7,385 bases of DNA from a virus (lineage: Duplodnaviria; Heunggongvirae; Uroviricota; Caudoviricetes). Below, one piece after another: positions 1 to 6,366 of this stretch (position 1 is its first letter; each line of letters opens with the position of its first letter). Below the pieces are notes generated by a model. That model was not told the DNA's origin. It was given only the letters and a program-made list of their open reading frames with translations, and did no database searches. The stretch lies in the IMG/VR virus record IMGVR_UViG_2585427757_000019; one strand, 5' to 3'. Position numbers and translations under genes: made by a program.

Positions 1-303
<303 letters not shown>

Positions 304-469: not shown

Positions 470-1009
470 TCATATCGCCCCCAGCATGGTAGTAACCATC
501 GCCATCAATGGACCAGCCAGATCTGGGTCCACACGAAACATCGACACAATACCTTCACTAATTTCCTTCAGTTTCTGGTGGCGTGGTGCGTTGAGAATGA
601 CAGCCTGTTTTGCCTCACTGAGTTCCTTTTCCATTTCAGCCAACCTAGCCATGAAGCTATCCTGCTCAACCAGGTAACCGCGATATTCCAGCGGTAGTAC
701 CGCCAGAATTGCCGGGGTCAGTTCACGCACGTTATTTCGGTATTTTTCAGAATCGAATTTGTTATCGAGGAAGCGGAACAGCTTCTGGCGTGCACGGCTG
801 ACATCATCAGGGAAATCGATGGTGCCGCCGCCCTGCTCCCGATACTCATTCACAATGAGTGTGGCAACGACATCCTGATTATCTACAGCCGACCAGGCGC
901 GGACGGCATCACGGATTTTTTCGTGGCCTGGCACCTGTTTTGTTTGAGAACGATTTATCACCGCAGTCGGGCTAAATCCGCTAGTCTGTTGGTATGTAAG
1001 TGGTTGCAT
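470..1009 (-). CDS. Regulatory protein in the cII position, possibly YdaT-like (functional CII analogue of Rac/CP-933P-type prophages)
   Basis: 179-aa ORF directly downstream of the cro-like gene on the same strand. AAGGAG lies about 8 nt upstream of the ATG at 1009. Its stop overlaps the next ATG (ATGA at 470-473). Motifs such as EYREQGGG and LTPAILAVLPLEYR are reminiscent of YdaT as I remember it, but this is a tentative family call. Confidence 0.55.
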   Translation of the reverse strand: MQPLTYQQTSGFSPTAVINRSQTKQVPGHEKIRDAVRAWSAVDNQDVVATLIVNEYREQGGGTIDFPDDVSRARQKLFRFLDNKFDSEKYRNNVRELTPAILAVLPLEYRGYLVEQDSFMARLAEMEKELSEAKQAVILNAPRHQKLKEISEGIVSMFRVDPDLAGPLMAMVTTMLGAI

Positions 1010-1078: not shown

Positions 1079-1309
1079 TTAAGCTGCGTTCTTTTCGGTG
1101 TGTGGAAACAACTTCGGAAGATCCGGGCGAATCTGGTATGCCTTCACTACTCCACCAGTAGCCGTAACAATGCTGCCGACATGTTCAGGGGATACCTTTG
1201 CTTTGTTGTGAAGCCACTTATAGACGGCCTGCTGTGAAACTTCGCAAGCAGCGCCCAGTTTCTTTTGTGAACCAACGATATTGATCGCTGTTTTGATAGC
1301 TGGGTTCAT
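1079..1309 (-). CDS. Cro-type HTH repressor, YdaS-like
   Basis: 76-aa ORF divergent from the repressor gene, with GGAGG 6-7 nt upstream of the ATG at 1309-1307. The helix-turn-helix segment GSQKKLGAACEVSQQAVYKWL and the RPDL motif fit the Cro/YdaS family. Confidence 0.7.
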   Translation of the reverse strand: MNPAIKTAINIVGSQKKLGAACEVSQQAVYKWLHNKAKVSPEHVGSIVTATGGVVKAYQIRPDLPKLFPHTEKNAA

Positions 1310-1413: not shown

Positions 1414-2103
1414 ATGAAAACAACACTCTCAGAAAGACTTAAAGAAGCCAGATTAGCGCGAGGCCTTACACAAAAGGCGCTTGGGGATTTGGTCGGGGTT
1501 AGCCAGGCTGCTATTCAGAAAATCGAAACAGGGAAAGCTAATCAAACAACTAAAATCGTGGAGATCGCGAACGCTTTGGGTGTGCGCGCAGAATGGTTAT
1601 CTTCTGGCGTTGGAAATATGTCAGATAGTACAGTGCAACCAATACAATCAACTGTCAGCCATTCCAAATACTTCAAGATTGACGTTCTTGATATAGAAGT
1701 CAGTGCTGGGCCGGGAGTCATCAACCGTGAGTTTGTAGAAGTTCTACGCTCGGTTGAGTACTCGTTTGACGATGCTCGTCACATGTTCGATGGTAGGAAG
1801 GCGGAAAATATCCGCATCATTAACGTGCGTGGTGACAGCATGTCAGGAACGATCGAACCAGGTGATCTGCTGTTCGTTGATATCACAGTTAAATCTTTCG
1901 ACGGTGATGGTATCTATGCGTTTCTGTACGACGACACAGCCCATGTAAAGCGCCTGCAAATGATGAAGGATAAGCTGCTGGTCATCTCTGATAACAAAAG
2001 CTACTCACCGTGGGACCCGATCGAGAAAGACGAGATGAACCGGGTGTTCATCTTCGGTAAGGTTATTGGGAGCATGCCGCAGACATATAGGAAGCATGGG
2101 TAG
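1414..2103 (+). CDS. cI: CI-type prophage repressor (N-terminal XRE HTH, C-terminal S24 LexA-like autopeptidase)
   Basis: HTH segment LTQKALGDLVGVSQAAIQKIETG. Ala-Gly candidate cleavage site in EVSAGPG. Catalytic Ser in GDSMSG and Lys in HVKRL. Start placed at 1414 (MKTTLSERL...) because the upstream in-frame ATG at 1348 lies inside the operator palindrome and the promoter geometry predicts a leaderless transcript from 1414. Alternative start 1348 would give 251 aa. Confidence 0.85.
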   Translation: MKTTLSERLKEARLARGLTQKALGDLVGVSQAAIQKIETGKANQTTKIVEIANALGVRAEWLSSGVGNMSDSTVQPIQSTVSHSKYFKIDVLDIEVSAGPGVINREFVEVLRSVEYSFDDARHMFDGRKAENIRIINVRGDSMSGTIEPGDLLFVDITVKSFDGDGIYAFLYDDTAHVKRLQMMKDKLLVISDNKSYSPWDPIEKDEMNRVFIFGKVIGSMPQTYRKHG

Positions 2104-2251: not shown

Positions 2252-2345
2252 GCCCTCCCCTCATCACACACACCGTTAAAAAAACCACCATAACCTCGCT
2301 TCAGTTATCGCTATGCGATTCAAGTCACAAAATAAATCCATCCTA

Positions 2346-2421
2346 AATACAACCAGTTATATCTAAAACAACCAATAAAACAACTTTTGTTGTTGACGAT
2401 AAAACAACTATAGTTTTAAAT
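2346..2421 (+). promoter_or_regulatory. OL/pL-like region: operator repeats and rightward promoter candidates
   Basis: TAAAACAAC occurs three times (2364-2372, 2376-2384, 2400-2408), with a related ATACAACC at 2347-2354 and a palindrome AACAAC-TTTT-GTTGTT at 2379-2394; these share the ACAAC(C) core with the OR sites. Promoter option 1: -35 TTGACG 2393-2398, 17 bp, -10 TTAAAT 2416-2421. Option 2: -35 TTGTTG 2387-2392, 16 bp, -10 TATAGT 2409-2414. Confidence 0.45.
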
Positions 2422-2614
2422 AAGTTCATCGCAACAACACAACGATACGGCAACTACCTGATTCACCGTTGCGATGACCGCTTAGATCCGCAGTTTGAAT
2501 TTCAGCAGGCTTCGGGGAGTGCGAGGGGTGAAACGGACGCGTGAACGTCGGTGTGACCAGCTGAAATTAACTCAACATTTCATACCTTAGTCGCTTCAAC
2601 GAGGCGGCTTAGTT

Positions 2615-2905
2615 ATGACAACCGGCGGCCATCCACCGCCTGAATACGCGCAGAAGTCTCTATATGTTCAGCAGCCCAGCTTACGGGCAGGAGTTTTTAT
2701 GGTTCATCAACATTATGGAACGCAGACCGTTAATCGAGGTGCGGTCATGCCAGGAATGCTGGTCAAACACAAAGATGGTACCTGGACTGCATCAGCTAAT
2801 TTACGCGGACGGCTTTATCTGCATCGCGGCATCGAGCGCACTTATACCCGTGATTTGCTCGTGGAAGTTTTTCTCGACGGACGCGGTAACGGCCTGAATC
2901 ACTAA
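2615..2905 (+). CDS. Hypothetical protein in the kil position immediately upstream of gam; start uncertain
   Basis: 96-codon ORF ending 75 bp before gam. Candidate starts: 2615 (GAGG 10 nt upstream), 2699 (AGGAG 6 nt upstream, 68 aa), 2747 (GAGGT 6 nt upstream, 52 aa). No resemblance to lambda Kil, CIII or N as I recall them. Confidence 0.45.
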
Positions 2906-2980
2906 TCCCCTTTCCTGTTTTCCTAATCAGCCTGGCATTTCGCGGGCGATATTTTCACAGCCATTTTCAGGAGGTCAGCC

Positions 2981-3277
2981 ATGAACGCTTATTACATTCA
3001 GGATCGTCTTGAGGCTCAGAGCTGGGCGCGTCACTACCAGCAGATCGCCCGTGAAGAGAAAGAGGCAGAACTGGCAGACGACATGGAAAAAGGCCTGCCC
3101 CAGCACCTGTTTGAATCGCTATGCATCGATCATTTGCAACGCCACGGGGCCAGCAAAAAAGCCATTACCCGTGCGTTTGATGACGATGTTGAGTTTCAGG
3201 AGCGCATGGCAGAACACATCCAGTACATGGTTGAAACCATTGCTCACCACCAGGTTGATATTGATTCAGAGGTATAA
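2981..3277 (+). CDS. gam: Gam, host RecBCD nuclease inhibitor (short 98-aa form)
   Basis: Translation [21 protein letters not shown]...[10 protein letters not shown] matches lambda Gam from memory with only a few substitutions. AGGAGG-like SD (caggagg) lies upstream. Confidence 0.95.
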
Positions 3278-3282
3278 AACGG

Positions 3283-4068
3283 ATGAGTACAGCACTCGCA
3301 ACGCTGGCAGGGAAGCTGGCTGAACGTGTCGGCATGGATTCTGTCGACCCACAGGAACTGATCACCACTCTTCGCCAGACGGCATTTAAAGGTGATGCCA
3401 GCGATGCGCAGTTCATCGCATTGCTGATCGTCGCCAACCAGTACGGCCTTAATCCGTGGACGAAAGAAATTTACGCCTTCCCTGATAAGCAGAACGGCAT
3501 TGTTCCGGTGGTGGGCGTTGATGGCTGGTCCCGCATCATCAATGAAAACCAGCAGTTTGATGGCATGAACTTTGAGCAGGACAATGAATCCTGTACATGC
3601 CGGATTTACCGCAAGGACCGTAATCATCCGATCTGCGTTACCGAATGGATGGATGAATGCCGCCGCGAACCATTCAAAACCCGCGAAGGCAGAGAAATCA
3701 CGGGGCCGTGGCAGTCGCATCCCAAACGGATGTTACGGCATAAAGCCATGATTCAGTGTGCCCGTCTGGCCTTCGGATTTGCTGGTATCTATGACAAGGA
3801 TGAAGCCGAGCGCATTGTCGAAAATACTGCATACACTGCAGAACGTCAGCCAGAACGCGACATCACTCCGGTTAACGATGAAACCATGCAGGAGATTAAC
3901 ACTCTGCTGATCGCCCTGGATAAAACATGGGATGACGACTTATTGCCGCTCTGTTCCCAGATATTTCGCCGCGACATTCGCGCATCGTCAGAACTGACAC
4001 AGGCCGAAGCAGTGAAAGCTCTTGGATTCCTGAAACAGAAAGCCACTGAGCAGAAGGTGGCAGCATGA
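3283..4068 (+). CDS. bet: Bet (Red beta) single-strand annealing protein
   Basis: 261-aa translation [66 protein letters not shown]... is nearly identical to lambda Bet as I remember it. The stop overlaps the exo start (ATGA at 4065-4068). Confidence 0.97.
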
Positions 4069-4745
4069 TACCGGACATTATCCTGCAGCGTACCGGGATC
4101 GACGTGAGAGCTGTCGAACAGGGGGATGATGCATGGCACAAATTACGGCTCGGCGTCATCACCGCTTCAGAAGTTCACAACGTGATAGCAAAGCCCCGCT
4201 CAGGAAAGAAGTGGCCTGACATGAAAATGTCCTACTTCCACACCCTGCTGGCTGAGGTTTGCACCGGTGTGGCTCCGGAAGTTAATGCTAAGGCGCTGGC
4301 CTGGGGAAAACAGTACGAGAACGACGCCAGAACCCTGTTTGAATTCACTTCCGGCGTGAATATTACTGAATCCCCGATCATCTATCGCGACGAAAGTATG
4401 CGCACCGCCTGCTCCCCCGATGGTTTATGCAGTGACGGCAACGGCCTTGAACTGAAATGCCCGTTTACCTCCCGGGATTTCATGAAATTCCGGCTCGGTG
4501 GTTTCGAGGCAATAAAATCGGCTTACATGGCCCAGGTGCAGTACAGCATGTGGGTGACGCGAAAAGATGCCTGGTACTTTGCCAACTATGACCCGCGCAT
4601 GAAGCGTGAAGGCCTGCATTATGTCGTGATTGAGCGGAATGAAAAGTACATGGCGAGTTTTGACGAGATGGTGCCGGAGTTCATCGAAAAAATGGACGAG
4701 GCACTGGCTGAAATTGGTTTTGTATTTGGGGAGCAATGGCGATGA
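4065..4745 (+). CDS. exo: Exo (Red alpha) 5'-3' dsDNA exonuclease
   Basis: 226-aa translation [65 protein letters not shown]... is nearly identical to lambda Exo as I remember it. Confidence 0.97.
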
Positions 4746-4924
4746 CGCATCCTCACGATAATATCCGGGTAGGCGCGATCACTTTCGTCTACTCCGTTAC
4801 AAAGCGAGGCTGGGTATTTCCCGGCCTTTCTGTTATCAGAAATCCACTGAAAGCACAGCGGCTGGCTGAGAAGATAAATAATAAACGGGAGGCGGTATGC
4901 ACAAAGCATCTCCTGTTGAGTTAA
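4742..4924 (+). CDS. Small protein of unknown function, lambda orf60a-like
   Basis: The ATG at 4742 overlaps the exo stop (ATGA), giving 60 aa ([60 protein letters not shown]). An in-frame ATG two codons upstream (4736) is the alternative start. Resembles lambda orf60a from memory. Confidence 0.65.
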
Positions 4925-5088
4925 GAACGAGTATTGAGATGGCACATAGCCTTGCTCAAATTGGAGTCAGGTTTGTGCCAATACCAGTAGAAACAGACGA
5001 AGAATTTCATACGTTAGCCACATCCCTTTCACAAAAGCTGGAAATGATGGTGGCGAAAGCAGAAGCAGATGAGAGAGACCAGGTATGA
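4897..5088 (+). CDS. Small protein of unknown function, lambda orf63-like
   Basis: 63-aa [66 protein letters not shown] overlapping the end of the previous ORF by 28 bp. Resembles lambda orf63 from memory. Confidence 0.65.
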   Translation: MHKASPVELRTSIEMAHSLAQIGVRFVPIPVETDEEFHTLATSLSQKLEMMVAKAEADERDQV

Positions 5089-5168
5089 CAACCACTGAAT
5101 GCATTTTTCTGGCAGCGGGCTTCATATTCTGTGTGCTTATGCTTGCCGACATGGGGCTTGTTCAATGA
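5085..5168 (+). CDS. Candidate 27-aa hydrophobic micro-protein (MTTTECIFLAAGFIFCVLMLADMGLVQ); not in the supplied ORF track
   Basis: The ATG at 5085 overlaps the orf63-like stop (ATGA) and its TGA stop at 5166-5168 overlaps the ATG of the next ORF at 5165 (ATGA). A 16-residue uncharged core (CIFLAAGFIFCVLMLA) is long enough for one transmembrane helix. GAGAGAGA/AGG purine run lies upstream. Confidence 0.3.
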   Translation: MTTTECIFLAAGFIFCVLMLADMGLVQ

Positions 5169-5380
5169 CACCTCAGCAAGAAAACGCCCTTCGCAGCATT
5201 GCCCGTCAGGCTAATTCTGAAATCAAAAAAGCCAGACAGCATTTTCCGGATAAAAACGTCGATGACATTTGCCGTAGCGTACTAAAGAAGCACCGCGAAA
5301 CGGTAACGCTGATGGGATTCACACCGACTCATTTAAGCCTGGCGATCGGCATGTTGAACGGCGTCTTTAAGGAACGGTAA
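5165..5380 (+). CDS. Hypothetical small protein (71 aa), orf61-position
   Basis: ORF MTPQQENALRSIARQANSEIKKARQHFPDKNVDDICRSVLKKHRETVTLMGFTPTHLSLAIGMLNGVFKER. Start chosen at 5165 because of the ATGA coupling to the upstream micro-ORF. The track's longer version (5099) would overlap that micro-ORF. Confidence 0.5.
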   Translation: MTPQQENALRSIARQANSEIKKARQHFPDKNVDDICRSVLKKHRETVTLMGFTPTHLSLAIGMLNGVFKER

Positions 5381-5402
5381 ACATGAAAAGCAAAATCATC
5401 AG

Positions 5403-5423
5403 GGAGCTACAGGCTCCTTTTTT
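5403..5423 (+). terminator. Rho-independent terminator inside the leftward (pL-type) operon
   Basis: Stem GGAGC (5403-5407) / GCTCC (5413-5417) with loop TACAG, followed by TTTTTT (5418-5423). Confidence 0.65.
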
Positions 5424-5478
5424 ATTATTCGCATTTACCCTCAAGCGTATTAACCAACAATTCAGGGATTAATGAAAG

Positions 5479-5697
5479 ATGGCAGACATCATTGATTCAG
5501 CATCAGAAATCGAAGAATTACAGCGCAATACAGCAATAAAAATGCGTCGTCTGAACTACCAGACTGTATCCGCAACTCATTGTTGTGAGTGTGGCGATCC
5601 GATAGATGAGCGAAGACGCCTGGCTGTTCAGGGTTGTCGGACTTGTGCGAGTTGCCAGGAGGAGATCGAACTTAAGAACAAACAATGGGGACTGTGA
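5479..5697 (+). CDS. TraR/DksA-family C4 zinc-finger protein (lambda Orf73-type)
   Basis: 72-aa ORF with the paired Cys motifs C-x2-C ... C-x2-C (HCCECGDPIDERRRLAVQGCRTCASCQEE), which is the arrangement found in TraR and in the DksA C-terminal zinc finger. Confidence 0.75.
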   Translation: MADIIDSASEIEELQRNTAIKMRRLNYQTVSATHCCECGDPIDERRRLAVQGCRTCASCQEEIELKNKQWGL

Positions 5698-5744: not shown

Positions 5745-6023
5745 ATGTTCAGAATCATTTTTCCTAACACCTGGTACGTCGACCACCACGGCACTCCCTG
5801 CAAAATCCTGCGTTCTACCCACAACAAAGTTCACTACATCCGAAAAGGCAGAACATGTATCGCCAGCATGTTCCGCTTTAATCATGACTTTGAACCTGTG
5901 AATAAAGCTGATGCAGATCGGATAGCAGAAGAGATCGAAACGGCAGAACACATTAAGAAGTTACGTGACATGCGTTCAAAAAGCAGAGGTAACCATGGAA
6001 TCATACAGCCTCACACTCGATGA
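5745..6023 (+). CDS. Hypothetical protein (92 aa), His/Cys-rich, in the ea8.5 position next to xis
   Basis: GAGGTG lies 5 nt upstream of the ATG at 5745. The ORF overlaps the xis start by 29 nt. H/C-rich N-terminal half (HHGTPCKILRSTHNKVHYIRKGRTCIASMFRFNH) suggests possible metal binding. No family recognised. Confidence 0.45.
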   Translation: MFRIIFPNTWYVDHHGTPCKILRSTHNKVHYIRKGRTCIASMFRFNHDFEPVNKADADRIAEEIETAEHIKKLRDMRSKSRGNHGIIQPHTR

Positions 6024-6366
6024 GGCCTGTCAGTTTCTTAAGATATCCAGACCAACCGCCACCAACTGGATACGAACAGGCCGCCTACAGGCAACACGTA
6101 AAGATCCAACCAAGCCAAAATCTCCTTACCTCACAACACGGCAAGCCTGCATTGCGGCGCTTCAGTCTCCGCTGCATACTGTCCAGGTGAGCGCGGGTGA
6201 TGGCATAACAGAGGAAAGAAAATGTCACTCTTCCGCAGAAATGAAATATGGTATGCCTCGTATTCGCTCCCGGGCGGGAAACGAATTAAGGAATCTCTTG
6301 GCACAAAGGACAAGCGGCAAGCTCAGGAGTTGCACGACAAGCGAAAAGCAGAACTCTGGCGAGTAG
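5995..6366 (+). CDS. xis: Excisionase / AlpA-type HTH DNA-binding protein; 3' end uncertain
   Basis: GAGG lies 5 nt upstream of the ATG at 5995. The N-terminal segment [26 protein letters not shown] is a typical excisionase-family HTH, and the gene sits immediately upstream of int. The frame stays open to 6366, overlapping int by 145 nt in another frame. Confidence 0.6.

Follow-up and report, generated by a model that had tools for sequence, protein, structure and literature searches.

The locus considered here raises the question of which gene occupies the position directly upstream of gam in a lambda-like early operon, and of where that gene begins. The window, that is, the whole stretch of DNA that was analysed, has 7,385 nucleotides and comes from a virus of the Caudoviricetes (IMG/VR record IMGVR_UViG_2585427757_000019). 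In a first-pass annotation, made from the letters of the sequence, an open reading frame (ORF) of up to 96 codons had been placed in the slot that lambda kil occupies and had been described as unrecognised.

Layout of the window and its junction with lambda-like DNA

The window represents the early region of a lambdoid E. coli prophage, whose features are collected in Table 1. On the + strand, the repressor gene, the product of which is named 'S24 family peptidase' by PGAP, is followed by an AT-rich control region, then by the ORF, assigned below to the kilR family, and then by gam. In the lambda-like block, Pfam matches were obtained for Gam, RecT, YqaJ, DUF1317 and DUF1382; the order after gam-bet-exo is DUF1317, DUF1382, a TraR-like gene, DUF4222, an xis-like remnant and the integrase gene. 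It was also observed that the xis-like HTH_17 ORF (5995-6366, + strand) overlaps the beginning of the integrase gene, and that just its first 66 nt were flagged by PGAP, as an incomplete pseudogene. In the immunity region, a CI of the S24 type is found together with homologues of YdaS and YdaT that are Rac-like and take the cro and cII positions, while the recombination genes are those of lambda; the YdaT-like protein is named 'cII' in the PhiR34_1 record.

Table 1. Features of the window (position 1 is its first letter)
Feature	Position	Strand	Basis or remark
IS21 istB, 3′ end	1-246	+	Pfam IstB_IS21, E 6e-21
YdaT-like gene	470-1009	-	
YdaS/Cro-like gene	1079-1309	-	
CI-type repressor gene (HTH + S24 peptidase)	1414-2103	+	Pfam Peptidase_S24, E 1e-18; HTH_3, E 5e-13
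Putative pL-like promoter, TTGACG-17 nt-TTAAAT	2393-2421	+	Read from sequence
Operator-like site (OL)	2401-2419	.	Second copy at 2375-2391; partner at 1340-1358, by the cro-like gene
Untranslated leader, 183 nt, conserved with the kil allele	2432-2614	+	16 phage records
Stable RNA hairpin, with ATG 2615 in its 3′ arm	2579-2617	+	-16.5 kcal/mol, z -5.4
ORF of 96 aa, ATG to TAA	2615-2905	+	
In-frame extension (96-aa reading), not conserved as coding	2615-2698	+	Closed or frameshifted in relatives
Spurious 77-aa ORF, overlapping in a different frame	2664-2897	+	CDS in the PhiR34_1 record
Shine-Dalgarno sequence, AGGAG	2689-2693	+	5 nt before ATG 2699, read from sequence
kilR-family gene, 68 codons + TAA, conserved coding sequence	2699-2905	+	Homology, PGAP, selection
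Lambda-like block: kil-gam spacer, gam, bet, exo, orf60a, orf63, orf61	2899-5674	+	BLASTN and Pfam

The same DNA was found elsewhere. PhiR34_1 equals the window at 100% over the compared stretch, 2300-3000, and E. coli strain 64 carries the window at 100% identity from base 302 on, at a place where it adjoins a tRNA-Arg gene. Other E. coli genomes matched the window from base 302 on, bases 1-301 representing the 3′ end of an istB gene of the IS21 family. Since an intact replication-protein gene spans the base-302 point in strain 64, an IS21 element has disrupted the replication gene of the prophage here, and the copy present in the window is probably defective.

The first-pass annotation had located the upstream limit of similarity to lambda at about the stop codon of the ORF. 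When the window was compared by BLASTN with lambda 27000-38500, a single block was returned, in which window 2899-5674 corresponds to lambda 33193-30418 at 97.0% identity over 2777 nt. In the pairwise alignment, identity to lambda begins at TCACTAA, where a closing His codon is followed by the stop in the ORF and in lambda kil (33187-33330) alike; thus, the junction had been placed exactly to the base. The accompanying statement that the ORF looks nothing like lambda Kil or CIII was also borne out: BLASTP against lambda Kil gave no alignment, even at E<=100, the local Pfam copy contained no match to Lambda_Kil or to any other family at E<=1, and the lambda CIII profile gave no match, phrog_294 being the sole PHROG or Pfam match of the ORF.

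Lambda Kil (47 aa; PF06301; PHROGs 3924/2461) resembles the gene of the window in place and in label, but not in sequence. Each lies in the slot directly upstream of gam, each reading frame finishes with CAC TAA at one and the same base, and each bears the functional label of an FtsZ-directed division inhibitor, whereas no sequence relationship between the two proteins was detectable; moreover, lambda Kil overlaps cIII, and the window has no cIII. Regarded as a junction, this is an ordinary mosaic one, which adds little beyond tidying. Regarded as a slot, the position upstream of gam in lambdoid phages is filled by one or the other of two division inhibitors, which are not related to each other and adjoin the Red genes exactly at the stop codon.

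Family membership and predicted function

A profile homology search had been proposed for the ORF, and it returned matches to PHROG 294 and to NCBIfam NF008465. The ORF is thus no longer to be called unrecognised, as it matches a characterised family, that of KilR of the Rac prophage, and already carries a corresponding RefSeq name. KilR is the Kil or 'killing protein' and FtsZ inhibitor that the defective prophage Rac of E. coli K-12 encodes as b1352, with a length of 73 aa (Conter et al. 1996, via PMC3961180; PMC12482147).

The ORF matched phrog_294, 'Kil protein for bacterial septation inhibition', at E 1.2e-38 and 1.3e-37, residues 1-68 of the 68-aa form covering profile positions 13-80 of 83, that is, its full length; Rac KilR matched the same profile at E 7.5e-35. 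In BLASTP against E. coli K-12 KilR, 22 of 61 residues were identical (36%, E 3e-12), and M29 of the ORF stood opposite M1 of KilR. When 14 relatives of the window protein were aligned by hhalign with 10 relatives of KilR, the probability was 97.6% (E 3.9e-12) over columns 1-63 versus 1-65. NF008465, 'FtsZ inhibitor protein' (PRK11354), aligned with the window protein from end to end at E 1.8e-17, with a score of 63.1 bits against a curated cut-off of 92 bits and against 159.1 bits for Rac KilR. Because this score lies below the cut-off, the protein was placed in the wider KilR family and not taken as a KilR equivalent. The precomputed PF27398.1 assignment is found on representatives of clusters at 96-98% identity to the window protein and on Rac KilR clusters; this model is not part of the local Pfam copy, which accounts for the lack of a Pfam match there, and Rac KilR likewise had none in that copy. 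For the ORF, no match was obtained in PADLOC or among PDB sequences. The residues invariant across both subfamilies are R13, P18-G19, A31-S32, L39-Y40, L59 and G63, and the family as a whole is small: in a collection of 1.84 billion proteins it has 92 representatives at the 50% identity level, most of which are 60-75 aa long. By homology, window 2699-2905 is a KilR-family gene, already known and named.

A similar picture emerged from the predicted structure. The AF2 model of the 68-aa form, built on a 24-sequence alignment, reached a pLDDT of 87 and a pTM of 0.71, with six strands spanning residues 8-59. Confidence was low at the ends, at residues 1-7 (mean pLDDT 67 over residues 1-10 and <50 over residues 1-3) and lower also in the tail, 60-68, so that the model presents about 7 disordered residues at the N-terminus and a C-terminal tail of 9 residues. 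An AlphaFold3 model of KilR has been described as a beta core with 7 unstructured N-terminal and 12 unstructured C-terminal residues (PMC12482147), and the predicted architecture of the window protein, a beta core with floppy tails, matches that published description. Foldseek against PDB gave no significant match, the best being the SH3-like barrel of eIF5A (E 0.26), and its only match in BFVD was a small uncharacterised Pantoea phage protein (E 3.5e-4, 34% identity).

The resemblance to Rac KilR extends from homology, similar size, the common PHROG 294 and the precomputed PF27398 on relatives of both proteins to the predicted six-strand beta core with disordered ends and to a place in the early-left operon upstream of recombination genes; genes of the kilR type stand directly upstream of recombination genes in Rac, HK225 and mEp237 too. 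Despite this, the window protein belongs to a distinct subfamily, at 63 bits versus the 92-bit cut-off of NF008465. Its tail, DGRGNGLNH, is Gly-rich and three residues shorter than that of Rac KilR, GRDGLPVKAESW, and within the tail region (9 residues versus 12) only L59 and G63 are common. The genes downstream also differ, kilR being followed by ydaE-racC-recET and the window gene by the Red genes of lambda.

The explanation that we favour, and regard as quite probable, is that the 68-aa KilR-family protein, encoded by the first gene after a repressor-controlled pL-like promoter, would block division through FtsZ when the prophage is induced. In the lysogen, the CI-type repressor would keep the kil operon silent; upon its inactivation, the early-left transcript would appear and the small protein would be translated from ATG 2699. 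The protein would then disturb the formation of the FtsZ ring, leading to filamentation of the host during phage development. For Rac KilR it was reported that extra FtsZ suppresses toxicity and that Z-rings are lost (PMC12482147, PMC5793797). We infer target and phenotype from these Rac KilR experiments, at 36% identity, and by this analogy an FtsZ-directed arrest of division after prophage induction is likely. The first-pass annotation had guessed at a cell-division inhibitor among other host-takeover functions, and this guess agrees with the function that homology indicates. According to PMC12482147, high levels of Rac KilR also mislocalise MreB, and the cells round up; such an effect on the elongation machinery is possible for the window protein, but less certain. 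Weighing against the FtsZ reading are the identity of 36% to KilR, the score of 63 versus 92 bits and the shorter, divergent tail. No experimental work on the 68-aa subfamily was found in the literature.

These same features could be read differently, namely that the protein belongs to the KilR family by descent and has a main role other than FtsZ inhibition, such as another cytoskeletal target, anti-defence or exclusion. A tail that is shorter and divergent and a score under the cut-off of the Rac KilR model would fit such a shift, as would two precedents: KilR has a second target system, MreBCD (PMC12482147), and other prophage division inhibitors, for instance DicB, reportedly have side roles of this kind (PMC6832061). 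However, both subfamilies have the beta core and the invariant residues in common, the gene occupies exactly the genomic place of kilR, and neither a defence-related profile nor that of any other family in the local Pfam and PADLOC collections matched the ORF, so that we consider this alternative unlikely.

The 68-aa subfamily, whose tail is shorter and Gly-rich, may differ in target range from Rac KilR, for example by acting on division only, without MreB and rounding, and the leader and hairpin may gate expression; we put this forward tentatively, as a possibility on the less likely side. The C-terminal tail of KilR is essential and acts in a length-dependent manner, and loss of its last three residues, on which the rounding and MreB effect depends, ends rounding and not filamentation (PMC12482147). 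The gene was found at >=90% identity (that is, at least 90%) in 2196 of 5426 complete E. coli genomes (~40%), nearly all under the RefSeq name, and this commonness would make the 68-aa subfamily a convenient natural variant for dissection of the KilR tail.

Other small division inhibitors provide a further frame of comparison. DicB of the Qin prophage, T7 Gp0.4 and the host protein SulA are likewise small and arrest division via FtsZ or its regulators (PMC3961180, PMC13423816), but they are unrelated to the window protein in sequence and predicted structure. Gp0.4, lambda Kil and Rac Kil were also reported to be mutually unrelated in sequence and predicted structure (PMC13423816). Lambda Kil acts via ZipA, whereas the toxicity of KilR is ZipA-independent (PMC12482147).

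Start codon and reading frame

Three products, of 96, 68 or 52 aa, had been offered for the ORF on account of internal starts with good Shine-Dalgarno sequences. Inside the ORF and in its frame, ATGs are indeed present at 2699 (68 aa) and at 2747 (52 aa), each with a purine-rich stretch on its 5′ side, which for ATG 2747 is GAGG at 2735-2738; conservation was found for the 68-aa form only. Upstream of the conserved ATG, the frame is open for just 5 codons in HK225 and for 18 codons in mEp237 and Turner. In mEp237 the similarity stops at the ATG, all DNA on its 5′ side being unrelated, and Turner carries a deletion of 1 nt that throws the 96-aa reading out of frame, the 68-aa ORF being intact and the GGAG retained despite the deletion. 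HK225 and mEp237 possess a GAGG/GGAG of their own at equal distance. In DNA of 100% identity, the CDS called by PGAP for WP_000233576.1 has exactly the coordinates 2699-2905. As judged from these comparisons, the conserved product is the 68-aa form from ATG 2699. The 52-aa start was rejected, as M45 is replaced by Q, L, R or T in relatives and such a start would drop the first strand of the model.

It is very unlikely that the product is the 96-aa form from ATG 2615, or a mixture in which the extra 28 residues are functional. The frame from 2615 meets no earlier stop in the window or in the majority of its close relatives, ATG 2615 or a longer start is the annotated one in several phage records, and the protein collection holds a 96-aa cluster with 472 member sequences, but the extension meets the closed frame, the unrelated DNA and the frameshift described above for HK225, mEp237 and Turner, respectively. 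Furthermore, M1 of KilR faces M29 of the 96-aa ORF, the choice of PGAP was 68 aa and not 96, and the GAGG available to ATG 2615 lies 10 nt away from it, both being in the stem of the hairpin of -16.5 kcal/mol. With this ATG and its distant GAGG inside a conserved hairpin, ATG 2615 is more readily understood as belonging to an RNA structure.

The substitutions that separate the window from its relatives follow the frame of KilR. Counted by codon position of that frame, they number 9/7/39 against HK225 and 9/8/37 against mEp237, and the codon changes comprise 32 and 29 synonymous and 10 and 11 non-synonymous ones, respectively. The pattern against HK225 indicates a kilR-family gene under purifying selection, and the dominance of the third position sustains the earlier view that the ORF in the kil slot is a real gene. 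That the real gene is instead the overlapping 77-aa ORF, or that the region is non-coding, has next to no probability, since the 77-aa ORF, although the annotated CDS of the 100% identical PhiR34_1 record, has no PHROG or NCBIfam match and only a sub-threshold chance match in Pfam, is refuted by the 4-5 stop codons that break its frame in HK225 and mEp237, and does not carry the third-position bias.

Control region, leader and public records

Transcription of the gene would start from the proposed pL-like promoter, the hexamers of which are listed in Table 1. A simple consensus scan did not call this promoter because of the T at position 2 of the -10 hexamer, and this hexamer matches at 4 of 6 positions, which weighs against the favoured explanation. 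The operator-like repeats comprise an inverted repeat of 19 nt, 95% complementary, and a direct repeat of 17 nt at 88%; these sites of 17-19 nt overlap the promoter, and their partner is found on the other flank of the repressor gene. The flanking of the repressor by such sites and their overlap with the promoter suggest that the kil gene is probably the first to be transcribed leftward upon loss of the repressor. No gene for an N-like antiterminator was found between the pL-like promoter and kil, and a rut-like bias of C over G at the start of the leader was weak.

The leader is 95-100% identical in the 16 phage records, including Lambda_4C10 and Perceval, which have different upstream genes. 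Rfam (E<=1) gave no match anywhere in the window, leader included, and RNA stability was unremarkable both for the leader stretch 2430-2720 (z +0.29) and for a long inverted repeat at 2488-2585 (z -0.84). Here, too, the window differs from Rac, in that the leader and the region of the Rac kilS sRNA showed no convincing similarity; no paper on KilS was found in the literature. The hairpin in which ATG 2615 lies, on the other hand, stood out in stability, and its fold is found also in HK225 (z -5.4) and in lambda, directly upstream of cIII (z -3.7), where two pairs are changed on both sides. It might serve as a processing site, as an attenuator or as a boundary element of the mosaic.

With regard to public annotation, the identical protein WP_000233576.1 bears the RefSeq name 'phage encoded cell division inhibitor protein', and a Kil label is attached to the gene in several phage records. 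The present comparison fixes the correct start and frame for a gene that is misannotated in several others. Conflicting records are those of PhiR34_1, in which the wrong frame was chosen, of Turner, which contains a frameshift chimera, and of Perceval, with a 139-aa extension. In phages 1W and 3W the gene is labelled 'membrane carboxypeptidase', and in others 'hypothetical protein'.
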